Shown here: positions 17,381 through 62,906 of the stretch, in pieces | How positions within the stretch are numbered: the first letter of the stretch is position 1 | How the letters are laid out: every line of letters starts with the position of its first letter | Assembly (NCBI GenBank): GCA_038562165.1 | Contig: JBCFAO010000001.1 | Coordinates: forward strand, 34,527 to 98,526 | DNA length: 64,000 nt | Source: Clostridiales bacterium | Lineage (GTDB): Bacteria > Bacillota > Peptococcia > DRI-13 > UBA5745 | Direction: 5' to 3' | Made by a program: the position numbers and the translations under genes | Notes under the pieces: model-generated | The model's input: only the letters and a program-made list of their open reading frames with translations | The model's database searches: none | What the model was told of the DNA's origin: nothing

Positions 17381-17462
17381 CCCCCGTTTGATTAGGAAAT
17401 GTGCAAAATTGCAGGTTTGTTACCCCGTTTGTTTGGAAATGTGCAAAATTGCAATTTTGCAC
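17381..17462. repeat. Dispersed repeat family, locus 1: two 40-bp-period units; the second forms a perfect 22-bp palindrome
   Basis: GTGCAAAATTGCAGGTTTGT at 17401; GTGCAAAATTGCAATTTTGCAC at 17441-17462. Confidence 0.85.
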
Positions 17463-17592
17463 GGTGGACGGCCCCCATTGCTGTAAATTGCATAGGCTGG
17501 ACCGGCCCTTCAAAGGAAATTTTGCCTTTTCCAGGTGATTTAAGGTTGTGCCGCAGCCGGTTCGGAATTTGAAATTTAAGTGTGTCCTCGTC

Positions 17593-17949
17593 TTAATCAG
17601 TCACAATTGCCACCATATAAACCATGGCATCAGGGCCCGGGTTCCGCATTTGCTGCTCATCTTCTGTCCCCGACACGATAGCACAGTCACCGGGCAATAA
17701 AGTATGCTCCTCTCCGCTATTATCTTTATAGAGGCAAACGCCTTCCAAAATGCAGACAGCCTCGGTTTTACCCGTATGATTGTGACGGCCAATAGTGGCT
17801 CCGGCTGGGACAGTCACTCTGGCAAACATATGAAAGCGTGGGTTATTGTGGTCTTGCTTTTCTATGCCGTGAGTAATAGTAATTTGTCCCTGGCCGCCAT
17901 ATTGGTTTTCCTTCAATTCCACCCGCTGCTCCGCCTTTTTTCTGATCAT
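17593..17949 (-). CDS. Cupin domain protein
   Basis: GATIGRHNHTGKTE..CILEG; LLPGD. Confidence 0.85.
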   Translation of the reverse strand: MIRKKAEQRVELKENQYGGQGQITITHGIEKQDHNNPRFHMFARVTVPAGATIGRHNHTGKTEAVCILEGVCLYKDNSGEEHTLLPGDCAIVSGTEDEQQMRNPGPDAMVYMVAIVTD

Positions 17950-18262
17950 TTCTGTCCCTCCTGCTATAATCTTATATTCGATTGATTTACTCTACCTTAT
18001 CTTACCATAAAAAGAATCGTTGAGGTATAGCAGGCGGCATCCGTCGAAATTTCTCGTCAAAAACAACACCGATAAGAAAAAAAGTTACCGGTGTTGTTGG
18101 AAATATTTTCTTGTCAGTCAGTGCCGGCGCATAGTAAAATAAGGTAGAGTTGCCCCTTGAGCGGCCGGTTCATTTCCTCTAAAGACTTTTACTTTATACA
18201 TCAGGAATGATTTTTCCTGGTTTTTCCTATATAATTAGTACAATTAGCAAGGAGAATGGAAA

Positions 18263-18997
18263 ATGGACATACGGGTACATAGTATAGGCGGATATATCAC
18301 CCAAAATTATTTGCTGGAAACAGCCCTGGGCTGGATTGCCATAGATACGGGCTATCCCGGCGGTGAAGAGAAATTCCTGAAACGTCTGGCCCGGTTTTGC
18401 AGGCCCGAGGATTTGAAATACATCTTCCTGACCCACGCCCATGACGATCACGCGGGATTTCTGGCGGCCCTGCTGGAAGCAGTCCCGGCAAAGGTAGTAC
18501 TGCATCCGGCGGCCGTGCCCAGTCTGGAAGCGGGCGAAAATGCGGAACCGGCAGGCAGCGGTTATGCCACCCGGGTGGGCGCTTTATTTGGCCTTGTCAA
18601 AAAATCCTTTACCTTCCCGCCTGTTCATTTGGGGGATAGAGCCGTTTTTGTGCAGAAGGAGGATGACCAGTTTTTTGAGGAACTGGGCCTGCCTTTGCGC
18701 ATTGTCTTTCTGCCAGGCCATACTGCAGATTCCATCGGTCTTTTCCTGCCGCAAACCGGTCAGCTCTTTTGCGGTGACGCCGCCATGAACGCCTTGATCA
18801 GCTTAGGGCGGCATACCATATGGATTGATGATGTCTCTGAATTTCAGAGGTCTTGGGATAAGATGATCGCCCTGAAACCGGTACGGATTTACCCCAGCCA
18901 CGGCACACCTTTTTCGCCAAAAGATTTGCTGAAATACCGCCGGTTTATGGATGGCCGCCCGGTCATCCAGCCCAATAACCAGCCCAATAAAAGGTAA
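18263..18997 (+). CDS. MBL-fold metallo-hydrolase
   Basis: THAHDDHAG, PGHT, GDA, PSHG. Confidence 0.92.
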   Translation: MDIRVHSIGGYITQNYLLETALGWIAIDTGYPGGEEKFLKRLARFCRPEDLKYIFLTHAHDDHAGFLAALLEAVPAKVVLHPAAVPSLEAGENAEPAGSGYATRVGALFGLVKKSFTFPPVHLGDRAVFVQKEDDQFFEELGLPLRIVFLPGHTADSIGLFLPQTGQLFCGDAAMNALISLGRHTIWIDDVSEFQRSWDKMIALKPVRIYPSHGTPFSPKDLLKYRRFMDGRPVIQPNNQPNKR

Positions 18998-19469
18998 GGA
19001 GGTAGTTTGTATCAATGCGTTAAAAACGGTAAAGATCACATCGGAATTTCCCGCAGCCGCACCGGAAATTTGGTCCCGGCTGACAAAAGTGGAAACCCTG
19101 CAGTACATTGCCGCTCCCTATGCCACATTTGAACCGCTGAGTCCCGCGGATGCAAACACATGGTCTGCCGGTTCCACCAGGCATTACCGCCTGAACATAT
19201 TCAGAATCATACCAATAGGAGTTCATACCATCCATGTGCGTAAATTTGATGAAGCTGCCCATTATGTTTTTACCGAGGAAAGCAACCGGCGGGTGCCGGC
19301 TTGGAACCACACCATTACTATTGAGCCAATTCATGAGCATAAATCGCGGTATACCGATATTGTAGAAATTGACGCCGGTCTGCTTACCGGATTGGTATGC
19401 TTTTGGAGCAAGCTTTTTTATCGCCATAGACAAAAAAAGTGGATAGAATTGCTTTCATCAGCATCTTAG
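18951..19469 (+). CDS. SRPBCC/polyketide cyclase-like hypothetical protein; start uncertain
   Basis: FPAAAPEIW...WNHTI...YTDIVEI...YRHRQ pattern; the strong RBS at 18996 has no canonical in-frame start. Confidence 0.6.
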   Translation: MAARSSSPITSPIKGKEVVCINALKTVKITSEFPAAAPEIWSRLTKVETLQYIAAPYATFEPLSPADANTWSAGSTRHYRLNIFRIIPIGVHTIHVRKFDEAAHYVFTEESNRRVPAWNHTITIEPIHEHKSRYTDIVEIDAGLLTGLVCFWSKLFYRHRQKKWIELLSSAS

Positions 19470-19510
19470 CCGGCTGAGGCCGGGCTGCCCTTATCGCCTC
19501 TATCGCCTCT

Positions 19511-20119
19511 TCAATTCACCTGCCTGGCTGCGGCAACCGCAGTCAGGATTTTTTGTTTATCCTTGCAGCGGTCTGTCTCCACCCCGCTGCTCAAATCCAC
19601 GCCCATGGGCCTGACCTGCCGGATAGCTGCGGCCAGGTTGCCGGGGTTCAAGCCCCCTGCCAGGAAAAAGGGCCGGCTAATGGCAGCAGTCAGGCTCCAA
19701 TCAAAACTCTGTCCGCTGCCGCCGCCATTGTCCAGGATGATCTGGTCGGCAGAGGAAGCGGCGGCGGCCGCCAGATCGGAAAGGACCCGGATCCGGAAGG
19801 CCTTCCAGATTGGCTTTCCTGCCACCCGGCTGCGCAGGGCGGCGATATATTGCTCATCTTCCCGGCCGTGGAGCTGTACTGCGGCAATGATCCCTTCCTG
19901 CAGCAATGCTGCCGCTTTCTCCAGGGGCTGATCCACCAGCACACCTACCGGTATGATCCCCGGAGCCAGGTTGCGGGTTAAATCCCGAACCTGCTGGGGC
20001 GTCACGTTACGGTGACTTTCGGGAAAATCGATAATAAAACCGCAGTAATCGGGAGCGGCCTCGTTGACGTAATCAATGTCACAGGGGCGGGACAGGCCGC
20101 AGATTTTGATTTTCGTCAT
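19511..20119 (-). CDS. trpF: Phosphoribosylanthranilate isomerase
   Basis: KIKICGL, VQLHG, LAGGL, VDLSSGVE. Confidence 0.96.
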   Translation of the reverse strand: MTKIKICGLSRPCDIDYVNEAAPDYCGFIIDFPESHRNVTPQQVRDLTRNLAPGIIPVGVLVDQPLEKAAALLQEGIIAAVQLHGREDEQYIAALRSRVAGKPIWKAFRIRVLSDLAAAAASSADQIILDNGGGSGQSFDWSLTAAISRPFFLAGGLNPGNLAAAIRQVRPMGVDLSSGVETDRCKDKQKILTAVAAARQVN

Positions 20120-21003
20120 CTTCCGACTCCTTTTTTCATAGCCGTCAGCATAGCCTGCCTGTCACGGCTGCTCATGAGGGCTTCGCCTATGAGCACTGCA
20201 TCGGCGCCGCTCTCCCGTAAAACAGCCACATCCTCCGGGCCGGACACGCCGGACTCGGCTACATACAGCACATGAGGCGGAACCTGTTGCCGCAGCCGGG
20301 CGGCATTGGTAATATCCACTTGGAAATTCTTCAAATTCCGGTTGTTGACGCCGATGATTCGGGCGCCGGCAGCCAAGGCAGAGGAAATCTCCGTCTCATT
20401 GTGAGCCTCCACCAGCGCCGACAGGCCCAATTGCCCGCATAGCTGCAAATACCGGACAATATCAGCCCTGTCCAGCAGAGCGCAGATCAGCAGTACTGCA
20501 TCGGCGCCCAAAACTTTGGCCTGATAAATTTGGTATTCGTCCACCACAAAGTCTTTGCGCAGCATAGGCAGAGACACCGCTTGCCTTATCTCTCGGAAGA
20601 TTTGATCGGATCCTTGGAACCATCTGGGCTCCGTCAGGCAGGAGATGCAATCCGCCCCCGCCGCCTGGTAGTCCCGGGCAATATCCAGATAGGGGAAGTC
20701 CGGCGAAATGACTCCCTTGGAAGGAGAAGCTTTTTTCACCTCACAGATAAAACTCATACCCGGCTTACGCAGGGCCGCCTCAAAGGCATTGCAATCGGCG
20801 CCGCATCCACTGCTGCCTTCGTCTCCGCTATTACCGCCTTCGTCTCCGCCATTGCCGCCTTCGCCTCCGCCAACACTGCCACTCCTGGCCTTGCTCCCAA
20901 CCAGCTCAAAGCATTGCCGCTTCAATTCTTCCAGGGAAACCCGGGCCCTCTCCTGCTCCACCCGGCAGAGGGCATGGGCGGCAATCTCCTGTAAAATATT
21001 CAT
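20116..21003 (-). CDS. trpC: Indole-3-glycerol phosphate synthase with a Gly-rich insertion
   Basis: [26 protein letters not shown]. Confidence 0.96.
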
Positions 21004-22010
21004 CGGCTGCTCTCCTCCACAAACTGCTTCAGCTTGGCCCGGGCCCCGCCGCTGTCCAACAGTTCTTCAGCCAGCCTTACTCCCGCTCCTATGGTTTCGG
21101 TTTTGCCGCCGATATAAAGAGCGGCGCCGGCGTTAAGGCACACTGCCTGGCGCTTGGGACCCCGTTCTCTGCCCTCCAGGATAGCCTCGGTGATGGCGGC
21201 GTTTTCCGTGGTGGCTCCGCCCACCAGGTCTTCCTTGCTGCAGCGGCTATAGCCAAACTGCTCAGGGGTAAGCTCATAGGACTGAAACCAGCCATCTCTG
21301 ATCTCACACACCGCAGTGGGGGCGCTCATGGATATTTCGTCCAGCTTATCCAGGCCGTAGACCACCATGCCCCGGGTGACCCCCAGTTTGGCCATTACTT
21401 GAGCCAGAGGTTCCACCAGGGCCTCTTCGTACACGCCCATCAGTTCCATGTCAGCCCCGGCCGGGTTGGACAGGGGCCCCAGGATATTGAACACCGTACG
21501 GATTCCCAGCTCCTTTCGGATGGGCGCCACATATTTCATGGCAATGTGATAGTTCTGGGCAAAGAGAAAGCAGATGCCAATACCCCGCAGCAGTTGAGCG
21601 CTCCGCTCCGGCGGCAGATTGATGTTGACGCCCAAGGCTTCCAGCACGTCGGCGGAACCGCACTTCGATGAAGCGGCCCGGTTGCCGTGTTTGGCCACCG
21701 GCACACCGCCGGCAGCGATGACCAGAGAAGCCGTAGTGGAGATATTGAAGGAGTTGGCCCCGTCGCCGCCGGTACCCACGATTTCAAGTACATTCATATC
21801 ATGAAGCAGCTTGATGCAATGAGCCCGCATCCCGGCGGCGGAGGCGGTGATCTCGTCGATGGTCTCTCCCTTGAGAGACAGGGCGGTAAGGTAAGCCGAC
21901 ATTTGAACGGGGCTGGCCCGGCCGTCCATGATTTCGTTCATTACGGCTTCCGCCTGGGCGTAGGAAAGGTCTTTTTTCTGGGACAGGCTGATAATGGCTT
22001 CCCGGATCAT
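21000..22010 (-). CDS. trpD: Anthranilate phosphoribosyltransferase
   Basis: [25 protein letters not shown]. Confidence 0.97.
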
Positions 22011-22609
22011 ATTAAATTCCCCCTATCTAAGGTAGTCAAGGAAAGACTGGCAAAGAAAGTGCGGATGATGGTTTCTCCCATTGGAGTCATAATCGACTCC
22101 GGATGGAACTGGACGCCGCAAACGGGATAATCCCGGTGCTCCACGGCCATGACTTCACCCTCCGTTGTCCGGGCGGTAACCCGCAGCACATCGGGGATAG
22201 CAGCCTCCAGCGCCGCCAGGGAGTGATAGCGGGCAGCGGGAAAAGGCTCCTCCAACCCCCGAAACAGGCGGCTATCCGGCTCACCCCCTATCAGGGAGGG
22301 TTTGCCATGCATAAGACATTTGGCATAAGAAACCGTGCCGCCGAAAGCTTCGATAATGGCCTGGTGGCCCAGGCAGACGCCGAAGATGGGCACCTGTCCG
22401 GCCAAGGCGCGGACAGCAGCTTCACAGATGCCGGCCTTCGCCGGATGGCCGGGGCCGGGTGAAAGGAACAGAGCCGCCGGAGCCATGGCCTCCAGCTCTT
22501 CCACCGTACAGGCGTCGTTGCGCAATACCTTAATATCGCTGCGGACAGTACCGATAAGCTGGTATAGGTTGTAAGAAAAACTGTCGTAGTTGTCGATAAG
22601 CACAATCAT
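22007..22609 (-). CDS. trpG: Anthranilate synthase component II
   Basis: [30 protein letters not shown]. Confidence 0.95.
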
Positions 22610-24150: not shown

Positions 24151-24179
24151 AAAAAACCTTCCTTTCGGCTGCCGGAGGC

Positions 24180-24460: not shown

Positions 24461-24481
24461 CGATATGAAATTGTTGGTCTG

Positions 24482-25660: not shown

Positions 25661-25733
<73 letters not shown>

Positions 25734-30530: not shown

Positions 30531-31919
30531 ATGAATAGTAAGACTTACACCGCCAAGGATCATTTATTGCGATGGATCAGTATTGCTTTTGCCACCTTAT
30601 TTGTCATCAATTATTTTGCCAAGATGGAGTCCCTCCGTCTAATCTGCGCCTTTTTCCTAATTATTATTTTATCCCAAAGCTTCCGCCAAATGCGCCCTGT
30701 CAATCTGCGGGTGGTGGGCGGGCTGTTTTTAGCCGGCGCCGTTATTTTGATCTGGTCCCGTGCCGATATTCATACCTGGCTGGAGGCATTGATGCAAAAT
30801 GCCAGCCTGGCCACCATGTTTACGGCGGCTCCCATGCTGGCACTGCCCTTTTATTATGAGGATTATCAAGGCGAGCTGGCCCGGTTTGCCCGGTTTAAAA
30901 TGCAATCTTTGTCAACCTTTATGTTGCTGAATGCCTTCAGCGGCTTTTTCTTAAGTCTCTTAGTAGGCGTAGGCGCTGTGGTAATTGCCTACGAAATGTT
31001 TTACCCTCATAGCAAAATGTACGATGCGGAAGAATTGTTTTATCCTTCCCTGACCCGCTACAATTGCTCTCCCGGCTTTTTGGCCCCGGCCTGGGCTTCT
31101 ATTGCGGTGACCACCATGGCGACGGGTACGCCCTGGGTTTCCCTTGTGCCCATAGGGCTGGCCTTTGCCTGCGTTTATATTTTGATTGATATGATTATGC
31201 TGTCCATTCATATCCGGCGGCGGCCGGGACGTTATCCCAAGCTGCAGCCTATTGCCGGCGAGAAGGTTAATTACAAAAGAATCTTCATCATGCTGCTCCT
31301 GGCTGTAATTATGCTGGGGATGATCGGAACGATTAATGCCACTACCGGTTGGAGCTTGATGATCGTTATTCCTATTGTGGCTATTTCCTTCCCCTTGCTG
31401 ACAGCCCTTTTTCAAAGGAAAATCCCGGCCTACCGGGCGGGCATGGCTCAATATTATGACAAGTCCCTGCTGAAAGTCCGGACTGAAATAGGCCTCTTTA
31501 CGGCAGCCGGTTTTCTGGGCAAAGCTCTGGAGGCCTCCGGTATCGGCGCCAAAATACCGGCTTTATTGCCGGATTGGCTTCATGCCTATCCGGTTTTCAT
31601 GATCATCGCCATCATGCTGGTGATTATTTTGCCCTCCTTGGTGGGCATTCATGCCGTAGCTACAGGCAGCGCCTTGCTGGCGGCCTTGACGCCGGCTGCG
31701 GTAGGAATGAACCAGATGACCTTCGTGCTGACGGTACTGGCCGGCTGGATGATCTCCATCATCGTATCGCCTTTTTCCGGTGCGGCTTTAATCGTTGGCG
31801 GCTATGCGGAGCAGCCTCCCTGGCAGATCTCCCTTGGCAAAAACGGCCCCTTCGGCCTGGCTTGCCTAATCGTGTTCAGCCTGCTGATTTTCCTGATTGG
31901 ACCTTTTTTGCAGGTTTAA
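30531..31919 (+). CDS. Multi-pass membrane protein, putative IT-superfamily transporter
   Basis: About 12 hydrophobic segments; LVGIH and SPFSG motifs. Confidence 0.65.
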   Translation: MNSKTYTAKDHLLRWISIAFATLFVINYFAKMESLRLICAFFLIIILSQSFRQMRPVNLRVVGGLFLAGAVILIWSRADIHTWLEALMQNASLATMFTAAPMLALPFYYEDYQGELARFARFKMQSLSTFMLLNAFSGFFLSLLVGVGAVVIAYEMFYPHSKMYDAEELFYPSLTRYNCSPGFLAPAWASIAVTTMATGTPWVSLVPIGLAFACVYILIDMIMLSIHIRRRPGRYPKLQPIAGEKVNYKRIFIMLLLAVIMLGMIGTINATTGWSLMIVIPIVAISFPLLTALFQRKIPAYRAGMAQYYDKSLLKVRTEIGLFTAAGFLGKALEASGIGAKIPALLPDWLHAYPVFMIIAIMLVIILPSLVGIHAVATGSALLAALTPAAVGMNQMTFVLTVLAGWMISIIVSPFSGAALIVGGYAEQPPWQISLGKNGPFGLACLIVFSLLIFLIGPFLQV

Positions 31920-31931: not shown

Positions 31932-32027
31932 GAGCTCACTGAAAAAGTCGCTTCCAATCCCGCCGCCTGTACAAAAATTGAATAATTCTGTGATGAGATC
32001 TGCTTCCACGACTTTTTCAGTGGCCTG
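31932..32027. mobile_element. 96-bp MITE with terminal inverted repeats and a 9-bp target-site duplication
   Basis: CACTGAAAAAGTCG (31937-31950) / CGACTTTTTCAGTG (32009-32022); GCAGACAGG direct repeat at 31923-31931 and 32028-32036. Confidence 0.8.
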
Positions 32028-32111: not shown

Positions 32112-33410
32112 ATGGAGCGTAAGATCATGCCTTCATTGCTTGAATGGAAGAAAAGCCCTGACAGAATGCCCATGCTGCTTTACGGAGCCCGTCAAGTTGG
32201 CAAAACATATACAGCTCTGACCTTCGGTAAAACACACTATAAAAACACGGTATATTTTAACCTGGAGGACTCCTTGGAGCTTAGCTCCATCTTTGAACGG
32301 GATCTTGACCCCAAACGCTTAGTGCGAGAGCTTTCCGTACTGGCCGGACAAAGTATTTTTGAAGAGGATACTCTTATTATCCTTGATGAGATACAGGCTT
32401 GCGAAAGAGCATTGACCAGTTTAAAATATTTCTGCGAAAAAGCTCCGGGCTATCATATTATTGCAGCAGGCAGCCTCCTGGGTGTGGCCCTTAATCGAGA
32501 GAAATATTCCTTTCCTGTGGGCAAAGTGGATATGTTGACCCTCTATCCTTTTGACTTTGAAGAATTTCTCTGGGCCATCGGCCAAAAAGATTTAAGTGAT
32601 TTGATTAAGGAATGCTATTGCACCTTTTCATCCTTTTCCCTTCACGATAAGGCCATGGATTTATATAAAACTTATTTAGTCACAGGCGGAATGCCCAGAG
32701 CAATATATGAGTATGCGGACAAAAAGGATTTCGACTTTGTTAAAGCCGTGCAAAAATCCTTAAACGACGCTTATATCGCCGATATGGCAAAATATGCAAC
32801 AGCTCAGGAAACCACCCGTATCATGGCCGCCTGGCAAAGCATACCTGCACAGCTTGCTAAGGACAACCGGAAATTCCAATATAAAATAATTAAATCAGGG
32901 GCCAGAGCTTACGAATATGAGATACCGCTGCAATGGCTGCAAGCATCGGGTGTTATTAACCGCTGCATAAAGGTTACAGAAGGAAAAATGCCCTTGTCAG
33001 TTTATACGGATAATAACTCCTTCAAAGTTTATATGGTGGATACCGGCTTACTTTGCTCCAAATTTGATATTCCGCCTCATGTGATTATTTCAGGCTCTCA
33101 CAGTTTTGACGGCTTCAAGGGGGCGCTGGCCGAGAACTATATTTGTCAGGCTCTCACAACGAACAATATTACCCCTTATTATTGGGAGTCGGCAGGTAAA
33201 GCCGAACTTGACTTTGTCTTTCAGGACAAGTCAGGCAATATTGTCCCCCTGGAAGCAAAATCTTCGGAAAATGTCCGTTCCAAAAGCCTTATGCGGTTTA
33301 TACAGCTCTACGCCTCCCCTTATGCCATACGGGTATCGGCAAAAAACTTTGGTTATGAGCGCAATATAAAAAGTGTACCGCTATACGCAGTATTTTGTAT
33401 TACCCCTTGA
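32112..33410 (+). CDS. AAA_14 + DUF4143 ATP-binding protein (intact)
   Basis: MERKIM...GARQVGKT, IILDEIQ, AAGSLLG, GGMP, ELDF...LEAK. Confidence 0.9.
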   Translation: MERKIMPSLLEWKKSPDRMPMLLYGARQVGKTYTALTFGKTHYKNTVYFNLEDSLELSSIFERDLDPKRLVRELSVLAGQSIFEEDTLIILDEIQACERALTSLKYFCEKAPGYHIIAAGSLLGVALNREKYSFPVGKVDMLTLYPFDFEEFLWAIGQKDLSDLIKECYCTFSSFSLHDKAMDLYKTYLVTGGMPRAIYEYADKKDFDFVKAVQKSLNDAYIADMAKYATAQETTRIMAAWQSIPAQLAKDNRKFQYKIIKSGARAYEYEIPLQWLQASGVINRCIKVTEGKMPLSVYTDNNSFKVYMVDTGLLCSKFDIPPHVIISGSHSFDGFKGALAENYICQALTTNNITPYYWESAGKAELDFVFQDKSGNIVPLEAKSSENVRSKSLMRFIQLYASPYAIRVSAKNFGYERNIKSVPLYAVFCITP

Positions 33411-33833: not shown

Positions 33834-34900
33834 TGCCCCATACCGCTCTGCCAAGGAAAAATTATTTTGATAATATCCGTTGCGCAACGATCGTACTTGT
33901 GCTTATTTATCATGTTATTTATATTTTTAATAGTGCGGGGGTCGTCAGCAATATTCCCATACAGGGGATCCCGGCTCTGGACGCTATCTGTTACTTTCTT
34001 TATCCCTGGTTCATGTGTCTGCTGTTTGTGGTTGCCGGTATCAGCGCCAGGTATTCCCTGCAGACACGCAGTACCGGACAATTTCTGCGGGAAAGGGTGC
34101 GAAAACTAATCATTCCTTACTTTGGCGGTGCGTTTTTGCTAGGCTGGCTTAACGGGTGGGTGACGGCCCATTATGTGGATATGTTCGGTGGGCATGCGGT
34201 TCCCGGTTTAGTAAAGTATCTGGTGTATACTCTAAATATCGGCCCGTTGTGGTTTCTTTTGGAGCTGTTCGTGCTTTCCATGATTCTGCTGCTGATCCGC
34301 AGGATTGACCCCAGGGACAAACTTTGGACACTGGCTGGGAAAGCCGGTCTGCCGCTTATCCTTTTGCTCTTCCTGCCGGTATGGGGTTCCTCATTTTTGC
34401 TCAATCTGCCTGTTGTCGTTGTCTTTCGCAACGGAATTTACGGGCTGATGTTTCTGCTCGGCCATTATGTATTTTCCCATGACACCATTTTGGCAAAGCT
34501 AAATAAACATGCCGCTCTGTTTTTGATTATTGCCGTCGGATTGGGGATTGTTGAAGTCTGGTATTTCTTCGGTCAGAACTATACATCCGACACCTGCCTG
34601 CAGCATCCATTCACAAACCTGTACCTTTGGGCAATGATCCTCGCCATTCTGGGATGTGCTCAGAGGTGGCTTAATTTCAGCAACTCCTTTACAAAGTATG
34701 TGCAAAAACGCAGTTTCGCCCTTTACGTGTTCCATTATCCGCTGCTGGTCACGGCGGCGTATCTGATCACGACTTATGCCGAATTGCCTATGGCGGCGGT
34801 TTATCTGATTTTACTGCCCTTCACTTTTGCCGCACCTATACTCCTTTATGAAATCATCAGCAGAATACCGGTCATCCGCTATCTTTTGTTGGGGATATGA
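33833..34900 (+). CDS. Acyltransferase 3 family (OpgC-like) membrane protein
   Basis: RKNYFDNIR...YH, ERVRKLIIP, LWFL, SFALYVFH; GTG start overlaps the upstream stop. Confidence 0.88.
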   Translation: MPHTALPRKNYFDNIRCATIVLVLIYHVIYIFNSAGVVSNIPIQGIPALDAICYFLYPWFMCLLFVVAGISARYSLQTRSTGQFLRERVRKLIIPYFGGAFLLGWLNGWVTAHYVDMFGGHAVPGLVKYLVYTLNIGPLWFLLELFVLSMILLLIRRIDPRDKLWTLAGKAGLPLILLLFLPVWGSSFLLNLPVVVVFRNGIYGLMFLLGHYVFSHDTILAKLNKHAALFLIIAVGLGIVEVWYFFGQNYTSDTCLQHPFTNLYLWAMILAILGCAQRWLNFSNSFTKYVQKRSFALYVFHYPLLVTAAYLITTYAELPMAAVYLILLPFTFAAPILLYEIISRIPVIRYLLLGI

Positions 34901-34930
34901 GGATTATATCCTTGGTTTCCTTTAACACAA

Positions 34931-34979
34931 AAACCCCGTGTAAGCCAACGGTAGCATACCAATGGTTTACACGGGGTTT
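34931..34979. terminator. Bidirectional terminator hairpin
   Basis: AAACCCCGTGTAAGCCA...TGGTTTACACGGGGTTT. Confidence 0.7.
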
Positions 34980-35032
34980 ACTCATGCCCTTTAATGTTTC
35001 ATAGCTTGTTAAAGGTTGTTACATAACCCCTC

Positions 35033-37087
35033 TCAGCAGATCTGACGCTGAAAGTGGCGGCCCTCCGTAAGGGCTGTCAAAAAATCAGCAACATAGCTTT
35101 CCATATTGGGAGCCGGCTCACAGATGATGCCCGGCTCCTTTTTTTCACCGCAGCGCAGCAGACAGTGCAGAGCTGTGGCTTCGCCGCTTAGACCGATGGT
35201 CTTATAGTGGTTAAAGGTATCGCAAAGATAGGTCTGTACATCGGCCAGGCCTTTAAGGGTCTCCACCTGAGAGCCGCCGGGCACATAAACGCCATCGTAA
35301 AAGACGGGGGCTGTAGTGGCGTAAGTCTTGTTAGCCTCTACTGTGCTGCTGTCACAGGCGGTGACCGGCCCTAAATTGCCGGATACTACATCAAAACAAG
35401 CGCCGGCCCCGGTAAGTGCGGAAGTAACGGCGTCAAACTGTGCCCTGTCAAAACCGCCGGCAACCAGTACGGCCACCTTTTTGGTTTGAGGGCTCTTCGG
35501 CGTATTGGCCATACTGAGAGCGGGCGAGGAAAAAGCGGTAGGCTTGGCCATATTAGCCGGCGGCGTAGCGCCCAAGCCTTCAGCGACTTTTTGGGCCAGC
35601 TCCGGATCAACGTTGCCCAGCATATCCACCAGTTTTTGTTGGGTATTTTTATTTTTGCATTTGCCCAGCTCGAACCGGAAAGCATCAACAATGTGTCTCT
35701 TTTCCCAGTCAGACATGCTGTTCCAAAACATAGCCGGCTGCGTATAGTGGTCCCGGAAGCTGGCACTGCGTTCCCGGATAATGTGACCGTCTACTTTCTC
35801 CTGGTAATGCTCAAAATGGCTTTCATGAGGGCCGGCGGCATGGGGCTGGCCGTTATTCAGGGAGTTGGGGTAATAACTGGTCTGGCCTTCATCAATGGTC
35901 ATGCGGTGCATGCCGTCCCGCTGGTTGTTGTTGACGGTAAGCAGCGGCCGGTTGATGGGAATCTGCTGGAAGTTGGGCCCACCCAAACGGGAAATCTGGG
36001 TATCAATGTAAGAAAACAACCGGCCCTGGAGCATGGGATCATTGGTAAAGTCGATACCCGGCACCACATTACCCGGACAGAAGGCCACTTGCTCCGTTTC
36101 CGCAAAAAAGTTGCTGACATTCTGGTTCAGCGTCATCTTGCCGATTTTTTGAAGAGGAACCAGCTCCTCCGGCCAAAGCTTTGTGCAATCCAGGATATCA
36201 AAATCAAACTTGAACTCGTCTTCCGGGTTTAGCACTTGAATAGCCAGTTCAAATTCAACGGCATTACCTTGTTCAATTTTCTCCCATAGATCCCTGCGGT
36301 TGAAATCCGGATCCTTGCCGGCGATCTTCTGAGCCTCATCCCAGACCAGGGAATGGACGCCCAAAATGGGCTTCCAGTGGAATTTGACGAACTTGAATTC
36401 ACCCTTGGCATTGACGAGACGGAAGGTGTGAATGCCAAAGCCCTCCATGGTACGGTAGCTCTGGGGTACGGCCCGGGGCGACATCAGCCACATCACATTA
36501 TGCATTGTTTCCGGCGTATTCACCACAAAGTCCCAGAAGGTATCGTGGGCTGAGGCTGCCTGGGGCATCTCATTGTTGGGCTCGGGCTTCAGGGCATGGA
36601 TAAGGTCAGGAAACTTAATGGCGTCCTGAATGAAAAATACCGGCATATTGTTGCTGACAATATCATAGTTGCCTTCTTCCGTATAGAACTTAACCGCAAA
36701 GCCCCGGACATCCCGCACCGTATCCGGAGAACCCCGGAATCCTGCAACGGTGGAAAAGCGCACGAAGACCGGCGTGACTAGGTTAGGATCGCTAAGGAAA
36801 TGGGCTCTTGTCAGATGAGAAAGGTTTTCGTAAACCTGAAAATAGCCATGGGCCCCTGATCCCCGGGCGTGAACAATCCGCTCGGGAATTCGCTCATGGT
36901 CAAAATGAGTGACCTTTTCCCGGAAGATAAAATCCTCCATCAGCGTGGGACCCCGTTTGCCAGCCTTCAGGGAATCGTCGGTATTGCTAACGCCCACACC
37001 TTGATTGGTAGTGAGATAACCGCTGCTATGGCTGACCCGGGCAGCGTCAAGATCCAGGGATTTTGCGTTTTGCTTCTCTGCCTGCAT
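35033..37087 (-). CDS. katE: Large-subunit heme catalase (HPII type) with a C-terminal DJ-1/PfpI-like domain
   Basis: [24 protein letters not shown]; start ATG 37087 with GGAGG RBS. Confidence 0.93.
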
Positions 37088-49818: not shown

Positions 49819-49839
49819 TTTAAACTTGAGATTTTGCAT
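49819..49839. repeat. Dispersed repeat family, locus 2: solo copy in the pcrA-ligA spacer
   Basis: TTTAAACTTGAGATTTTGCA (49819-49838) is the exact reverse complement of TGCAAAATCTCAAGTTTAAA at 53660-53679. Confidence 0.75.
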
Positions 49840-49870
49840 ATTTTTCAGTGCTCCTGCCCAATACCGCGGC

Positions 49871-52469: not shown

Positions 52470-52660
52470 GACGTTCAGGCATGCCAAACTGTCCTTAAAT
52501 GAAAATTGTTACAGTCGGAAATATATTAAAAGAAACGTTGGATAACATATAACCTTTTATTTTTAGCCTGAGTTCCCGCAAAATTAAGCCATACACCGAA
52601 AAAAGCCGCCAATGCCAGACTTGTCTTGCCAAGCTTGACTCGGAATTCACTTTTGTCCGG

Positions 52661-52750
52661 TCTGCAGGTTTTGTCCTCTCTGCAGGTTTTGTCCTCTCTG
52701 CAGGTTTTGTCCTCTCTGCAGGTTTTGTCCTCTCTGCAGGTTTTGTCCTC
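52661..52750. repeat. 18-bp tandem repeat, 5 perfect copies (TCTGCAGGTTTTGTCCTC)
   Basis: Units start at 52661, 52679, 52697, 52715 and 52733. Confidence 0.95.
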
Positions 52751-52994
52751 TCTGTGCAAAAATGCAGGTTTGTATCCAGTAAGGGCGCCAGTTGAGCAAA
52801 AATGCAAGTTTGTAGACACCCCTTAGAGTTATGGCGGCTCAAAAAATAAGTAGAAACCTATACCTTGGCTGTATCTAGTGCCCTGGCAGAAATGAATTCA
52901 CTACCAAACTGCAAAAAAGGCTTAAGCTTTCTAACATTTCTTCTGATCGGGCCTCTAGACGAAGACAAACTTGCAATTTTGCACAGAGGGGGAC
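52745..52994. repeat. Dispersed repeat family, locus 3: two direct copies 40 bp apart plus one inverted copy
   Basis: Motifs at 52754 and 52794, inverted at 52965; ~30-bp inverted repeat 52745-52773 / 52965-52994. Confidence 0.85.
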
Positions 52995-53081
52995 CTATAA
53001 TAAGCCAGCCACCCCCTGCCGGTGGGGGGGGTGTACTCATTTCTTTCAATTAGGGATATGCCAATACCTTAAGTAATGGAA

Positions 53082-53527: not shown

Positions 53528-53630
53528 ACCGTTCCTCCTGTAAAAGATTCACACTTCTAGTATGGGCATCGAAAAACTTTTTATACTAATAAAGGAAAAC
53601 TGTTACCTAAAACAACATCAACATAGGTCG

Positions 53631-53797
53631 GCAAGTTGTATTTGCGTCCGGCCATTTTGTGCAAAATCTCAAGTTTAAAGTGTGTTGTTACTTTAGGATA
53701 GAGGAAGTCTTCTGCCCGTGACACTAAATACGGACAAATAGAGCCAAATACAGCCGGAAGACGGCTTTCAAGCACTTTAAACTTGAAATTTTGCGCA
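53631..53797. repeat. Dispersed repeat family, locus 4: 25-bp inverted repeat (23/25) around a 90-bp core
   Basis: TGTGCAAAATCTCAAGTTTAAAGTG (53658-53682) / CACTTTAAACTTGAAATTTTGCGCA (53773-53797). Confidence 0.85.
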
Positions 53798-56997: not shown

Positions 56998-57055
56998 AAT
57001 ACCTTAATCTTACCGACTTTTTTACTTTATCATTTATTATCTCTGCCGTCAACTT

Positions 57056-57409: not shown

Positions 57410-57447
57410 CCCTCCTTCAAATGATACAGGGTTCGTTAACATTTCAG

Positions 57448-57648: not shown

Positions 57649-57680
57649 GCAAAACTCTCCCCTCTTTCCGTCGTCTGCTA

Positions 57681-58184
57681 TCAGAGGCTATTGAGACTTT
57701 CCAGATCATCTGCAAATTTTCTTTTTAACGCTCTTTCCACCCCGGGAGTTACCAAACCGGCTATTCTGGCGTTGGAGCTGGCTACCTGCTTGATCATGGA
57801 AGAGCTGATAAAGGAATACTCGGAACTTGACATCAGAAAAATTGTTTCTATTCCTTCATCTAAATATTTATTAATGGCCGCTACCTGCATCTCATATTCA
57901 TAATCGGAAACGGCCCGCAGACCCCGGATAATGGCATGGGCGCCGATATCTCTGGCCAAATCCACCGTCAGTGAGTCATAGACGGTGATGCTGCAATTGG
58001 GCAGGTGGACGATGGCTTCCTCCATAAAGGCCTGTCTTTCTTCTAAGCTAAACAGGGCACGCTTATAATTCTGATTGGCAATAGCTATCACTACCCGGTC
58101 AAACAGCCGGCAAGCCCTTTCCGCAATATGAATATGGCCGACGGTTACCGGATCAAAGGTGCCCGGATAAACTGCAATTTTCAT
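57681..58184 (-). CDS. coaD: Phosphopantetheine adenylyltransferase
   Basis: YPGTFDPVT.GH, RGLRAVSDYEYE, ISSS. Confidence 0.97.
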   Translation of the reverse strand: MKIAVYPGTFDPVTVGHIHIAERACRLFDRVVIAIANQNYKRALFSLEERQAFMEEAIVHLPNCSITVYDSLTVDLARDIGAHAIIRGLRAVSDYEYEMQVAAINKYLDEGIETIFLMSSSEYSFISSSMIKQVASSNARIAGLVTPGVERALKRKFADDLESLNSL

Positions 58185-58373
58185 TATCTCCCATCCTTTC
58201 CCCTTTTAATTCTGGATTGCACTAAAATATCCTGCCAAAAAAGGTATAAAGTTATAACGCCTCAGTAGAAAATTTTCGATTATAGAAAGATTTTCTTACC
58301 TCTGTGCGTTTTAACAAGGCAGGAGATAGTGATGACTGAAAAAAGCAGCGGCACAGTGAGGGCCCCGGCGCCA

Positions 58374-61300
58374 CTACGAGGCCGGAGAATCTTTTTTGGC
58401 TTTTTCTTTTAAAACCACCTTGTCTTCACCTAAAAGTGCAATCAAATCCTGCAGCAAAAGATCGCTGCCATCAATTTTCGGCCAAAACTCAGCGGCTAAA
58501 GCCCGCTTTTGCTTGGCAAAAAACAGAAATACGGGAATGGGGCCGCAATGCCTGTACATTAAGCTGCGAAGCTGATCCATAATAACCTGATCCTGGGCTT
58601 CCTGATCCGGCAAAGCCAGCCAAAGCTGGCGGCGTTCCAAAGAAGCCTTGCCGGCTTTGATATCCAGCAGGTCCACATCTTGGGTAACCCAAGGCGGCAA
58701 ACGCTCTGCCTTATCCCCCGCAACCGAACCGCCGTTGCCGGGCGAAGTCTTTCCGGACCGACTGCTAACCGGCGGATTATCGCCGGAAAAACTGCCGGCA
58801 GTTAAGCCGCCGCCGGTCATGTCTTCTTCCATCCCCCCCAGCACTTCCAGCTTCTCCAGAAATAACTTAGGCTGCTCCTCCTGGCCCTGATAGCGGCCCT
58901 TGATTACCACCGCCAGATCATTGGCCAGGCGGGGAGCCATTTCCTCAAAAAGTTTAGGGAAAACCAAAACATCAACGCTGCCGGTCAGATCCTCCAGCCG
59001 GAAATTGGCCATCATCTGGCCTCGCTTTGTCACCGTCCGCCGGTACTCATTAATGATGCCTCCCACCACTACCGGCAGGTCCTCCTCCTCCGGCAAATCG
59101 TCGATATGATGGCTGATCTTCTTTTCCACCAGTCCCACATAAGGCCTCAGGGGATGACCGGAAAGGTAAAGGCCCATAACCTCTTTTTCTTTCGTCAATA
59201 TATTTCTTTGATCAATTTCTTCTTTTTCCGGCAGGGGAAAGCTATCCTCCCGGGGCTTGATTTCCGGCGACAAATCAAACAGGGATATTTGATTGCTGGC
59301 CCCGTCTTTTTGCCAAGCTGCCGCCGTCTCCATGACTTGAGGCAATATTTCCAGAAGCTGGGCCCGGTGGCCCGGCACGGAAGAAAAAGCCCCGGCCCAA
59401 ATCAGGTTTTCCATAACCCGGCGGTTGATCTGGGCCAGATTGACCCGGCGGCAGAAACTTTCCAGACTGGTATAAGGGCCCTCTGCCCGCTCTTCAATGA
59501 TGGCCTGGATGGCCGGCCCGCCTACCTGCTTGATGGCGGCCAGACCAAAGCGGATAGCACCGCCGTTGACGCTGAAGCCGGACTGGCTCTCATTGACGTC
59601 GGGAGCCAGAATCTCAATGCCTCTTTGCCGGCATTCGTTAATATAAAAAGGAACTTTGTTTTTTGTTTCCATGACGCTGGAGAGCAGGGCCGCCATAAAC
59701 TCTACGGGATAGTGGGCCTTGAGCCAGGCCGTCTGATAAGCGACGAGAGCGTAAGCCGCCGAGTGGCTTTTGTTGAAACCGTAGCCGGAAAAGTACTCCA
59801 TCAGCTCGAAAATCTTGCGGGCAACATCCTCGGCTACTCCTTTTTTCTTAGCTCCGTCCACGAAGGTCTGGCGGTAAGCCGCCAGCACCTCCGGCTTTTT
59901 TTTGCCCATAGCCCGCCGCAGCTGGTCGGCTTCCCCCAAGGTTAAGCCCCCCATGTCGCCGGCAATACGCATGACCTGCTCCTGGTAAAGGATGACGCCA
60001 TAGGTAGTATCCAATATGGATTCCAGCATGGGATGAAGATAGGCGTTGGGCACCTGGCCATGGCGGCGGCGGATAAAATCCTCCACCATACCGCTGCCCA
60101 AAGGCCCCGGCCGGTACAAAGCCACCAAAGCCACGATATCGTCAAAGCGCTCCGGCTTCAGCTCCCGGATAATCTGGCGCAGACCGTCGCTTTCCAACTG
60201 GAAAATACCGATGGTATCCCCATCGGACAAAAGCTTATAGGTGGCTTCATCATCAAGAGGCAAACGGTCAATATCAATATGAATACCTTTGCTTTGACGG
60301 ATTAACTCTACGGCGTCGCCGATGACCGTCAGGGTCCGGAGGCCTAAAAGATCCATTTTTAAAAGACCAATGGATTCTACCGTATCCTTCTCAAACTGGG
60401 TGCAAGGCAAGCCGTCGGAGGATCTTTGTAAAGGCAGATAAGTTTCCAGGGGCCGGCCGGAAATCACCAGGCCGGCGGCATGAACACCGCTATGCCGGGG
60501 CAGACCCTCCAGAGATTTTGCCACTTTGATCAGGCCTGCCACCTGCTCATCTTCTTCAATCAGGGTCCTCAATTCCCTGGATAACTGTAAAGCCCTGTCC
60601 AGGGTAATATTCAATTCAAAAGGCACCAGCTTGGCAGTTTTATCTACGGTAGCTAAAGGGATACCCATAGCCCGGCCGGCATCCCGGATGGCAGCCTTTG
60701 CCGCCATGGTCCCGAAGGTAATAATCTGACTGACTTTATCCCGGCCATAGCGCTCGATAACGTATTCGATGACTTCCCCCCGCCGCAGATAGCAGACGTC
60801 AATATCAATATCCGGCATGCTGATCCGCTCCGGATTGAGAAAGCGTTCAAACAGAAGGTCATAGGCCAAGGGATCGATATTGGTGATACCCAGGCTGTAG
60901 GACACAATACTGCCGGCAGCGGAGCCCCGGCCGGGTCCCACATAGATGCCCTTTTCCCGGGCAAAGCGGATAAAATCCCAAACAATCAGAAAATAGCCGG
61001 GGAATCCCATATTTTCAATAACTGAAAGCTCATAGTCCAGACGCTGCCGGGGGGAGTTCCCCTTATCCCGGGGCTTGTCCACGGTGCCGGGATACCGCTC
61101 CTCCAGTCCTTTTTCGCAAAGCTGGCGCAAATAAGAAGCCTCGTCTTTTTGACCGGCAGGCAAAGGATAGGGCGGCAGGTGATTATGGCCGAATTCCATT
61201 TCCACCTGGCAGCGGCGGGCAATTTTTACGGTATTGGCCAAAGCTTCGGGATAATCGCCAAAAAGCAGTTCCATTTCCGTAGGGCTTTTTAAATAGAACT

Positions 61301-62024
61301 CCTGAGTTTCAAACTGCATTCTGGCCGTATCCGCCAGAGTCTTGCCCGTCTGAATGCACAACAAAACATCCTGGACGTAGGCGTCTTCCCGGCTGACGTA
61401 ATGGAGGTCATTGGTGGCTACCAGCGGTATGCCTGTCTCCTCATGAATCCGGATTAACCCGCCATTGACCAGAGTTTGATTTTCTATGCCGTGATCCTGC
61501 AGTTCCAGAAAGTAATTACCCCGCCCGAATATGGCGTCGTATGCTAAAGCCGCCTCTTTGGCCTCATCAAACTTGCCTGCCATCAATAAGCCGGGTATCT
61601 GGCCGGCCAGACAGGCGGAAAGACAGATAAGACCCTGGGCATTGGCCTGCAAAAGCTCCATATCGATCCTGGGTTTATAATAAAAGCCCTCCAGCCAGCT
61701 GCGGGAAACCAGCTTAATCAGATTTTCGTAACCTGTCTGGTTTTCTGCCAGCAAAACCAAGTGGTAAGGCTTTTCGTCCAAACCGGCTACTTTATCCCAG
61801 CGGGTCCTGGGGGCTACGTAGACTTCGCAGCCGATGACCGGATGGATACCGGCTTTTTTAGCCTCTTTATAAAACTCCACTACTCCGTACATCACACCGT
61901 GGTCGGTAATAGCCAGAGAATCCATGCCCAGTTCCTTGGCCCGGGCAAGCAGTGACCGTATTTTGCACGCGCCGTCTAATAAACTGTAGCAAGTATGATT
62001 ATGTAAATGTACAAATTCTGTCAT
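58374..62024 (-). CDS. dnaE: DNA polymerase III alpha subunit
   Basis: FVHLHNHT.YSLLDG PHP domain, GRGSAAGS, PDIDID, GFNKSH; start ATG 62024 with GGAGG RBS. Confidence 0.97.
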   Translation of the reverse strand: MTEFVHLHNHTCYSLLDGACKIRSLLARAKELGMDSLAITDHGVMYGVVEFYKEAKKAGIHPVIGCEVYVAPRTRWDKVAGLDEKPYHLVLLAENQTGYENLIKLVSRSWLEGFYYKPRIDMELLQANAQGLICLSACLAGQIPGLLMAGKFDEAKEAALAYDAIFGRGNYFLELQDHGIENQTLVNGGLIRIHEETGIPLVATNDLHYVSREDAYVQDVLLCIQTGKTLADTARMQFETQEFYLKSPTEMELLFGDYPEALANTVKIARRCQVEMEFGHNHLPPYPLPAGQKDEASYLRQLCEKGLEERYPGTVDKPRDKGNSPRQRLDYELSVIENMGFPGYFLIVWDFIRFAREKGIYVGPGRGSAAGSIVSYSLGITNIDPLAYDLLFERFLNPERISMPDIDIDVCYLRRGEVIEYVIERYGRDKVSQIITFGTMAAKAAIRDAGRAMGIPLATVDKTAKLVPFELNITLDRALQLSRELRTLIEEDEQVAGLIKVAKSLEGLPRHSGVHAAGLVISGRPLETYLPLQRSSDGLPCTQFEKDTVESIGLLKMDLLGLRTLTVIGDAVELIRQSKGIHIDIDRLPLDDEATYKLLSDGDTIGIFQLESDGLRQIIRELKPERFDDIVALVALYRPGPLGSGMVEDFIRRRHGQVPNAYLHPMLESILDTTYGVILYQEQVMRIAGDMGGLTLGEADQLRRAMGKKKPEVLAAYRQTFVDGAKKKGVAEDVARKIFELMEYFSGYGFNKSHSAAYALVAYQTAWLKAHYPVEFMAALLSSVMETKNKVPFYINECRQRGIEILAPDVNESQSGFSVNGGAIRFGLAAIKQVGGPAIQAIIEERAEGPYTSLESFCRRVNLAQINRRVMENLIWAGAFSSVPGHRAQLLEILPQVMETAAAWQKDGASNQISLFDLSPEIKPREDSFPLPEKEEIDQRNILTKEKEVMGLYLSGHPLRPYVGLVEKKISHHIDDLPEEEDLPVVVGGIINEYRRTVTKRGQMMANFRLEDLTGSVDVLVFPKLFEEMAPRLANDLAVVIKGRYQGQEEQPKLFLEKLEVLGGMEEDMTGGGLTAGSFSGDNPPVSSRSGKTSPGNGGSVAGDKAERLPPWVTQDVDLLDIKAGKASLERRQLWLALPDQEAQDQVIMDQLRSLMYRHCGPIPVFLFFAKQKRALAAEFWPKIDGSDLLLQDLIALLGEDKVVLKEKAKKDSPAS

Positions 62025-62174
62025 TAGCAAATAACCTCCGGGACTTCCCAATCGGGCAAAAAGGCAGTATCATAATGCTAATCTGCAATTAAAACGTGGT
62101 ATAATAATAAAAAACGATAAACAACAGAAAAATGATCAAGAAAAATAATCAACAGAAAAAAGGAGTGTTGCAGC

Positions 62175-62633
62175 ATGCCGCTTATGGAGCAGCTTAATCA
62201 AGAAATGAAGGAGGCCATGAAGGCCAAGGAGGAAGGAAAGCTGAAGCTTTCCGTCATTCGCATGGTCAAGTCCGCCATTAAGTATCAGGAAATCGAAAAA
62301 GGCGAGAGCCTCAGCGACGAAGAAATCATCACCTTGATTTCCCGGGAACTGAAGCAGCGCCGGGAAGTAATTCCTGAGTACGAAAAAAAAGGACGCACTG
62401 ATGTAATTGACACCTTAAATCAGGAGATCGCCGTCTTGATGACCTATTTGCCCAAACAACTGGAAGAAGGGGAAATCAGGTCCCTAATCACCGCCGCCAT
62501 CACTGAAACCGGCGCCGCCGGCCCTAAAGACATGGGCAAGGTCATGGGTAAAATCAGCGCCGCCACCAAAGGCAAGGCCGATGGCCGTCAGGTCAGCAGC
62601 TTGGTCAAGGAAATGCTGGAGAAGCTGGTATAG
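62175..62633 (+). CDS. yqeY: GatB/YqeY domain protein
   Basis: MKEAMKAK, KQRRE, YLPKQL, DMGKVMG, GKADG. Confidence 0.92.
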   Translation: MPLMEQLNQEMKEAMKAKEEGKLKLSVIRMVKSAIKYQEIEKGESLSDEEIITLISRELKQRREVIPEYEKKGRTDVIDTLNQEIAVLMTYLPKQLEEGEIRSLITAAITETGAAGPKDMGKVMGKISAATKGKADGRQVSSLVKEMLEKLV

Positions 62634-62648
62634 CAGATAGAGCAGATA

Positions 62649-62906
62649 GCTCAAAAGAGCAGGTTTGTATCTGCTGTCTGGTCATTTTGAGCAATAATGC
62701 AAGTTTGTAACTTGTTCCAAAGAGTTTTGAGCAAAATTGCAAGTTTAGAAACGTATTTGGCCTGGAAATAGGGTTTTCACCCCATTTGCAGGTCAAATTT
62801 GTTTCGAAGGGGTGATTTGGTAGTAAACAAACCTGCAATTTTGAGCAGTTAGCTCAAACAAACGGTGACAAACCTGCAATTTTGGGCATTTGACCTAGCA
62901 AACGGC
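62649..62906. repeat. Dispersed repeat family, locus 5: three direct copies (40-bp period) facing two inverted copies (41-bp period)
   Basis: Forward motifs at 62649, 62689 and 62729; inverted ACAAACCTGCAATTTTG at 62827 and 62868. Confidence 0.9.

Follow-up and report, generated by a model that had tools for sequence, protein, structure and literature searches.

Along a 64,000-nt stretch of the genome of a Clostridiales bacterium (GenBank assembly GCA_038562165.1, contig JBCFAO010000001.1, positions 34,527 to 98,526; hereafter the window), a short motif recurs at five intergenic loci, in copies 40 to 41 bp apart that form arms facing each other across a variable core. What are these repeats, and do they move? 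On the evidence below, we give roughly even chances to the motif being the end sequence of genus-restricted, small, non-coding elements of foldback type that resemble MITEs (miniature transposable elements with inverted repeats), in which it would be a putative transposase-binding site. In appearance the family is a mobile element in decay, not a system of a new kind. The genome holding the window (G000) comprises 3.68 Mb in 86 contigs at 50% G+C, the window being part of contig C8, and was compared with a sister genome (G004) and a congener (G005).

Abundance, phasing and distribution of the motif

A whole-genome copy scan, as proposed in the initial annotation of the window, was performed with the 17-nt motif core CAAAATTGCARGTTTGT at up to two mismatches. 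The motif is abundant in G000, with 410 matches (182 exact, 154 with one mismatch and 74 with two) in 111 clusters. The conserved stretch covers 21 nt, TGnGCAAAATTGCArGTTTGT, and its leading TG is present in 93-95% of the copies. Among same-strand neighbors at most 400 bp apart, 82 pairs are spaced at 40 bp and 105 at 41 bp, together 187 of 204, and the spacing peak first seen in the window is therefore found genome-wide. Opposite-strand neighbors are convergent in 90 cases and divergent in five, two of the five being overlapping palindromes. The commonest cluster layouts are ++-- (18), ++--- (15), ++- (12) and +++--- (9).

Within the window, the consensus of the initial annotation (GNNCAAAATTGCARGTTTGT, up to three mismatches) gave 13 matches versus 0.16 expected, and none of 100 shuffles reached 13. 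Eleven of the 13 motif positions originally listed were recovered among these matches. Position 53659 was matched at four mismatches to that consensus, or at two mismatches to the inner-type motif described below, and the copy at 49819 is degenerate and solitary, seen by eye only and missed by pattern searches allowing up to four mismatches. An extra three-mismatch match at 34613, inside a 355-aa open reading frame (ORF), is probably due to chance, and 17441(+) and 17443(-) are one palindromic site. Same-strand spacings in the window measured 40, 40, 40 and 41 bp, and the facing arms were borne out at 52753-52985, 53658-53797 and 62648-62888.

Gene context was taken from a crude ORF model that covers 86.5% of G000. 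Only 46 of the 410 core matches fall inside this model, in agreement with the intergenic bias suspected from the window; clusters lying mostly within a model gene are found in ORFs of ~110-210 aa (one of 508 aa), some of which read through the element itself. The clusters are mostly 110-460 bp long and the ORFs that overlap them are short and spurious, which makes them small, non-coding and multi-copy, as MITEs are. Twenty-seven of 87 clusters (31%) are located between convergent genes, compared with 12% of all neighboring gene pairs. For 19 of the 111 clusters, the nearest contig end is no more than 300 bp away, and thus the repeats break the assembly.

The GTTTGT-type unit was counted at up to one mismatch in 41 related genomes and is abundant only in G000 (336 matches) and G004 (383), with two matches in G005. 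When the whole element beside yqeY was used as a BLAST query over 61 genomes, the family was found in G000, G004 and G005 only (3/61), and two further genomes gave single matches at E ~0.006. A scan of 185,579 species, one genome per species, returned one other record with two phased exact units. Three other members of the genus gave no match, in assemblies (80-85% complete, ~2 Mb) of a kind that often leaves repeats unassembled; viral contigs gave 0 matches, and metagenome contigs gave 0 and then four single matches. The repeat family is restricted to the genus.

In G005 the family mainly takes another form. The inner-type end GCAAAATTGCARGTTTAAAGTG has 185 matches there and 50 in each of G000 and G004; the G005 matches are mostly exact and mostly form convergent pairs 100-125 bp apart. 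Twenty G005 copies align as a ~140-bp unit with an inverted repeat of 25 nt; its core varies but retains a CACTAAATA(C/T)AG box. G005 also has arrays, e.g., five 41-bp units on its contig C33 (L107), which adjoin a long GC-rich run of short repeats (GCGCCAGTGCCTGCGCCAATGCCCGC...) at 5880-6149, up to the contig end. Near-identical simple units in the same orientation are located at 428-568 and 6309-6449 of G005 contig C29 (L132) and at 376-526 and 9606-9757 of G005 contig C30 (L133). These pairs bracket 5.7 kb and 9 kb of genes, including 1305- and 1205-aa ORFs, and may be due to chance, duplication or a composite unit.

Element architecture and the window loci

Each element has two arms of one to five units, left and right of a core that is specific to the subfamily. 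Classified by the start-to-start distance of the inner motifs, the cores fall into classes of 95/96 (29 copies), 107 (6), 135-139, 167-170 (14) and 198 bp. Each class has its own conserved core, and the arms are identical in kind across all subfamilies; different cores on the same arms are the pattern expected if only the ends matter. The basic form is ~140 bp long and has one 25-nt inverted-repeat pair, TGnGCAAAATTGCARGTTTAAAGTG, corresponding to the terminal inverted repeats of a MITE. Many cores are bounded by an inner motif variant ending in GTTTAAAGTG and hold a CACTA(G/A)ATACAG box. The similarity among 107-class copies ends on one side at 5'-TG(T/C)(G/T)CAAAA, with the complement of this sequence marking its limit on the opposite side, and the outermost units of this subfamily end 5'-TG...CA-3'. 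In 19 elements of the 95/96 class, oriented by their core, the arms were seen by eye to be asymmetric: the arm with 40-bp units mostly has CAAGTTTGT, with TTTTG before the unit, whereas the arm with 41-bp units has CAGGTTTGT, with GGCTAACTG before the unit and a CGTTCGC-type spacer after it.

Neighboring units of an arm have near-identical spacers, e.g., at C22:83150 and in the five units of the G005 array, and the arrays look like tandem reiterations of the end of the ~140-bp element. The proposal that the unit spreads as a module holds for the 40/41-bp units, but these look like local tandem duplications, not separate insertions.

A second, related motif family, TGnnCAAAAATCGARGTTGTG (CAAAAATCGARGTTGTG), has 74 matches in G000. 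It too occurs as facing pairs, often with ~62-bp phasing. In some arms it keeps the 40-bp phase of the first motif, and several copies are enclosed by ends of the IS1182 type discussed below.

The repeat features of the window are as follows.

17381..17463: collapsed element, with + units at 17400-17420 and 17440-17460, the second overlapping a - unit at 17443-17463 to form a 22-bp palindrome
49819..49840, - strand: solo degenerate inner-type end TTTAAACTTGAGATTTTGCATA, within the 66 bp that separate two - strand ORFs
52617..53065: composite repeat belonging to the '168/169-bp core' subfamily; its outer flanks are conserved and recur at eight or more other loci
52651..52754, + strand: 18-bp tandem repeat, 5.8 copies of the unit TTTTGTCCTCTCTGCAGG (Tandem Repeats Finder score 194, 97% matches)
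52753-52773 and 52793-52813, + strand: left arm, two units 40 bp apart
52814..52964: core of the 168 class (11 genome copies of the class), with the box CTGTATCTAGTG, which is CACTAGATACAG in reverse complement
52965..52985, - strand: right arm, one unit, exact match
53629..53797: basic element, with the inner-type inverted pair TGnGCAAAAT..CAAGTTTAAAGTG at 53658-53682 (+) and 53773-53797 (-)
62648..62748, + strand: left arm, three units 40 bp apart (62648, 62688 and 62728), beginning 14 bp past the stop of a yqeY-like ORF
62749..62826: core of the '95/96' subfamily, with the imperfect palindrome TTTGGCCTGGAAATAGGG..CCCCATTTGCAGGTCAAA; 29 genome copies of the class, 37 distinct copies aligned
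62827-62847 and 62868-62888, - strand: right arm, two units 41 bp apart, plus a terminal GCTAAC..CCGTTTG-type spacer, to 62905

The element at 17381..17463 is without core and inner right arm, and its G004 ortholog is a full element that is 182 bp longer (two + units, a ~96-bp core and three - units). The composite repeat at 52617..53065 is similar in flank and core to C9:81840, C33:53611, C37:56775, C67:29805 and others; its 18-bp tandem repeat reiterates the motif half CTGCAGGTTT and continues into the first full unit. The basic element has a ~90-bp core with the box CACTAAATACGG and a degenerate outer unit at 53629-53657, and its part at 53658-53797 shares the form of the ~140-bp G005 units. 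The spacer homologies noted between loci were also recovered: 17383-17453 aligns with the reverse complement of 62834-62905 at 85% mean column identity, and 53631-53680 with 62659-62709 at 87%.

Mobility, a resident insertion sequence and the rival readings

The initial annotation had left a choice between a non-autonomous mobile element, MITE- or REPIN-like, and a genome-wide set of protein-binding or DNA-organizing sites. A non-autonomous MITE-like element fits best: the repeats are multi-copy and intergenic, they have inverted arms, subfamily cores and a simple ~140-bp form, one site near yqeY is empty in a relative, and they are tied to an insertion sequence (IS) of the IS1182 family. The REPIN part of that reading fails, and proofs of mobility are missing for the array form.

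The IS is 1.63 kb long and has three intact copies in G000, outside the window.

C19:34509-36138: intact IS1182-family IS
C34:41846-43475: intact IS1182-family IS
C58:319-1947: intact IS1182-family IS

Its transposase is 486 aa long (encoded at 34617-36074 in the C19 copy), has the Pfam domains DUF772 and DDE_Tnp_1, and scores 354 bits with NCBIfam NF033551 (cut-off 270). All three copies are in or beside motif elements; they are inserted in the GGTTTGTAR / AGTTTATAG part of the motif and have perfect 9-nt flanks (CTACAAACC, AGTTTATAG and GGTTTGTAA). The IS thus seems to home into the motif. Its end GACTTTTTCAGTGCCCTC has 98 matches in G000 at up to two mismatches, and 29 of these abut the motif, compared with 88 of 20,000 random 24-mers; 15 of the 29 stand against GTTTGT-like sequence and 14 against the whole motif in reverse. 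Where IS-type ends are paired less than 2 kb apart, 12 of 18 pairs have 9-nt flanks identical at seven or more positions, often GGTTTGTAA.

MITEs of ~245 bp with IS1182-type ends likewise have the GGTTTGTAR part of the motif as their insertion site and are accompanied by 9-bp duplications. Their subterminal sequences form a motif-like inverted pair, TG(T/C)ACAAAATT(T/C)GAGGT; with this pair and a core box ACACTAAAT(A/G)(C/T)AG, they share their inner plan with the motif elements. Furthermore, the composite at C48:34093-34512 of G000 has IS-type ends around two + units, a 96-bp core and three - units; it is absent from G004, where the flanks abut directly, and was therefore moved, or lost, as a unit. 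Of 40 flanks of G005 copies, eight have an inward IS-type end no more than 33 nt from the motif, versus one with an outward end. Just outside the arms, GGCAGT(G) words are enriched and strand-specific: the 170 flanks counted have 45 pointing towards the element and three away (~6 expected), and they may be remnants of the IS-type end GGGCACTGAAAA. These words sometimes form tandem runs of ~20 bp, and they are also present at 17338-17380 of the window, beside the collapsed element, as in the flanks of many elements. A 96-bp mini-element at 31932-32027 of the window, in the gap between an ORF ending at 31919 and one starting at 32112, consists of two inverted IS1182-type ends flanked by a perfect 9-bp direct repeat GCAGACAGG.

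Comparison with the relatives reveals considerable turnover. An empty site had been suggested as a check at yqeY, and in G005 the segment 62641-62925 of the window is indeed missing, with 55 bp in its place; the flanks of the two genomes are too diverged for exact element borders. At the G004 yqeY site, the outer units are kept and the inner pair is a different one, of the second-family motif CAAAAATCGARGTTGTG. At six of 20 orthologous loci, the G000 and G004 lengths match to within 25 bp; at the other 14 the difference is larger. Copies have been lost, collapsed or interrupted at no visible cost. At six loci, the motif diverges between G000 and G004 as fast as the spacers and cores do (41/630, 6.5%, versus 63/913, 6.9%; P = 0.84, Fisher's exact test); resident copies show no sign of constraint in this test, whose power is low with six loci.

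If the motif is an element end, the following course is suggested. The starting point would be the basic ~140-bp element, with its terminal inverted repeat, 5'-TG on each side and a core with the CACTA(G/A)ATACAG box. In G000 and G004, the outer 21 nt (TGnGCAAAATTGCARGTTTGT) with a 19-20-nt spacer would have been reiterated in tandem, giving arms of one to five units that face each other across the core, with a unit length of 40 bp in one arm and 41 bp in the opposite arm. The motif would be bound by the transposase, much like the sites in the multi-site ends of Mu, Tn7 or Foldback/Galileo. With units of 40/41 bp (~four helical turns), the proteins bound to an arm would all be on the same face of the helix. 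As the enzyme, the resident IS1182-family transposase or a lost relative would be most likely. We infer that most G000 copies, including all five window loci, are immobile relics, which would now change mainly by gain and loss of units, deletion and IS insertion.

Several observations weigh against this account. No consistent target-site duplication was found in 85 G000 elements at any offset of 0-44 nt and any length of 3-9 nt. In G005 there is no more than an A/T flank repeat of 3 nt, present at nine of 20 copies versus 2 of 20 in the inverted control; it adjoins the outside of T(G/A)n...n(C/T)A ends and could be a short duplication or merely a preference for A/T-rich targets. No autonomous copy with motif ends was found by searches for rve, Y1, DDE_Tnp_1 and DUF772, whose matches are of IS1182 type or bounded by other ends, or by inspection of lone arms, which are truncated or IS-interrupted copies. 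IS1182-type ends GAGGGCACTGAAAAAG at both ends with a 9-bp duplication are a property of the IS and the ~245-bp MITEs, not of the motif elements; an inward IS-type end lies within 110 bp in only 10 of 196 G000 arm flanks, and none of the five window loci has one. The IS subterminal sequence resembles the motif only loosely, as judged by eye. In G005, whose copies are the most uniform, no IS1182 transposase was found, and in G004 only a fragment of it, in assemblies where repeats are often left out. Finally, the form of the element differs between the genomes at several orthologous intergenic sites that are filled in each: G005 has a simple unit there, G000 or G004 an array or remnant. Therefore, some elements predate the split or the same gaps were hit repeatedly; such site sharing fits long residence, or selection, as well as mobility. 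Apart from the one composite with IS1182-type ends, no clean insertion polymorphism of the array form was found: most sites shared by G000 and G004 are filled in both, and several differing sites are replaced without a clean insertion. Contigs from sequencing runs over 61800-63600 break at the element, and none spans it to show an empty site.

Other partners were considered. No transposase gene was found in the window, as had been noted: searches of its C8 stretch with the Pfam profiles rve, Y1_Tnp, DDE_Tnp_1 and DUF772 and with the IS1182 protein gave no match. Three rve genes of G000 were rejected as partners. The first scores as IS3 family and its ends do not match the motif; the second, likewise with dissimilar ends, has inserted into an element; and the third is in an extra 1.8 kb beside an element. 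With neither a 5-bp duplication in the 85 elements nor an rve transposase between motif ends, a partner of Mu/Tn7 type was not found. Two rve-type IS copies of G000, at C12:248-1772 and C30:36450-38300, are located one inside and one beside repeat elements, and one of them is absent at the G004 site (span 2168 versus 326 bp); insertions in general may favor the arrays as hot spots. The small motif-bounded contigs C16 and C18, considered as autonomous copies, contain ordinary genes and no transposon.

The main rival to a mobile element is a platform for a host protein, whether nucleoid-associated, topological or transcription-related, that is kept by selection, as proposed for the repetitive extragenic palindromic (REP) and BIME sequences and for STAR elements. 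The 40/41-bp phasing would serve cooperative binding on one face of the DNA, and the inverted arms would allow looping. Among copies, the motif is 92-100% conserved per position versus ~30-65% in spacers and cores, a difference biased upward because the copies were picked by the motif itself. Elements occupy orthologous intergenic sites of G005 and G000 where the surrounding intergenic DNA no longer aligns, and this reading remains the main rival because among-copy conservation and cross-species site sharing both fit it. The excess of clusters between convergent genes and the failure to find a target duplication or an autonomous partner also agree with it. However, the motif diverges as fast as its surroundings at the six loci above, the loss, collapse or interruption of copies has no visible cost, 58 of the 61 related genomes searched gave no sign of the family, and no candidate protein was identified. 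We therefore regard a host platform as possible and rather unlikely.

Less probable still, and in our view doubtful, is that a single transposase lineage uses the arrays as landing pads and loading sites. One DNA-binding domain would then read the IS1182 subterminal site and also direct integration into the GGTTTGTAR half of the motif. If this were true, the genome would hold ~400 safe-harbor sites that soak up insertions in intergenic DNA, and the arrays would persist at orthologous sites across species through benefit to both host and element. The result would be a long-term partnership like that of REPINs and RAYTs (REP-associated tyrosine transposases), with a DDE transposase in place of an HUH enzyme.

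A REPIN-like element, with single strands that fold by means of the inverted arms and an HUH (Y1) transposase that moves them, appears improbable. Movement of this kind would explain the missing target duplications, and the single strands do fold back strongly into the long hairpin expected of REPINs, with z-scores of -6.71 and, for the basic element at 53629-53797, -4.45 (0/200 shuffles equally stable). Moreover, G005 has an intact Y1 gene ~650 bp from an element. Nevertheless, the pairing is confined to motif copies, as the spacers of the two arms are not complementary and stay unpaired, and the motif itself is not a stable hairpin. No RAYT was found by Y1_Tnp profile search and NCBIfam scoring: the Y1 genes score as IS200-type (NF033573, 160 and 98 bits), and the REP-associated model gives 32 bits, under its cut-off of 80. 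The G000 Y1 copy is broken by an in-frame stop and its contig has no motif cluster, and G004 has no Y1 gene.

That the arrays are transcribed functional RNAs, or repeat-spacer units of 40/41 bp like those of CRISPR arrays (clusters of short palindromic repeats at regular intervals), is suggested by their periodicity and by contigs from two RNA libraries that cover 62579-62884, and can practically be set aside: these contigs show neither strand nor level, so that with DNA possibly in the libraries they hint at most that transcription of the upstream gene reads through, the arms hold no promoter-like or terminator-like site, and the spacers recur between loci, with units of both orientations facing each other at one locus (Cas genes were not searched for). 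Rfam, a check suggested in the initial annotation, gave no match to the two largest loci at E up to 1; its only gathering-level matches in the window are tRNA genes at 25661-25733 (-) and 63672-63745 (+). A conserved hairpin in the 95/96 core was also rejected, the alifold consensus of 37 cores being weak (-2.89 kcal/mol), with few pairs and no convincing covariation.

Comparison with known systems

Bacterial MITEs and REP-type repeats are normally single inverted pairs. Our literature search, with most subscription journals and ISfinder outside its reach, found no bacterial family with phased, reiterated inverted ends. The motif arrays and the motif-homing IS could serve as a compact natural system for asking how end recognition by a transposase is coupled with its target choice and by what means repeats in intergenic DNA persist. 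In practice, the arrays break assemblies and would mislead CRISPR or small-RNA finders.

BOX elements of Streptococcus pneumoniae have boxA and boxC ends with boxB repeats between them, i.e., an internal unit of ~45 bp in variable number. The motif elements are similarly modular with a variable number of units, but their repeated unit is the end itself, on both sides. IS1397 is an IS that inserts into REP-type repeats. Like REP, BIME and REPIN sequences, the motif elements are dispersed and extragenic, enriched after convergent genes, and preferred targets of particular IS elements; they differ in that no RAYT was found for them, their motif is not a hairpin-forming palindrome, and they have phased direct repeats within an arm. 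Insertion into REP sequences is also described for ISPpu9 in the part of the source available (PMC12288879).

STAR elements of Staphylococcus consist of 14-bp GC-rich direct repeats with at least 40 bp of recurring sequence between them, and both their function and their spread are given as unknown in the accessible part of the source (PMC3532100). To the extent of that account, they resemble the motif elements in being intergenic and genus-restricted, in having a short repeat and recurring spacer at ~40-bp intervals, and in loci that expand and contract. The sequences are unrelated, and STAR elements are described there with direct repeats only, whereas the motif elements have two facing arms around a core.

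IS1182-derived MITEs have been described before: two, related to ISMac2 and 160 and 169 bp long, are listed for Methanosarcina acetivorans in the available part of the source (PMC3852290). The motif elements are like bacterial MITEs in being small, non-coding, multi-copy and intergenic, with terminal inverted repeats and subfamilies that differ in the middle, and like IS-derived MITEs in their sequence and insertion linkage to a resident IS. They differ from MITEs in that their ends are reiterated one to five times in 40/41-bp phase and in that neither a consistent target duplication nor a same-ended autonomous copy was found for them.

Mu, Tn7 and IS21 are transposons with multi-site ends. 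In Foldback/Galileo elements, as far as the source is available, several binding sites for a THAP domain are present in the tandem repeats of long inverted ends (PMC3688188). Judged by that description, the motif elements share with these systems the inverted arms of tandem repeats with one short site each, the variable arm length and the unrelated center. Unlike Foldback/Galileo, Mu and Tn7, they encode no transposase, their binding site is putative only and their host is a bacterium; the number of units in an arm is also far more variable than in Mu or Tn7. MITEs are thus the closest known systems in behavior, and multi-site transposon ends together with Foldback/Galileo elements the closest in architecture. 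With its reiterated, helically phased ends, the family is a bacterial one that resembles the eukaryotic Foldback/Galileo elements and the multi-site ends of Mu and Tn7.

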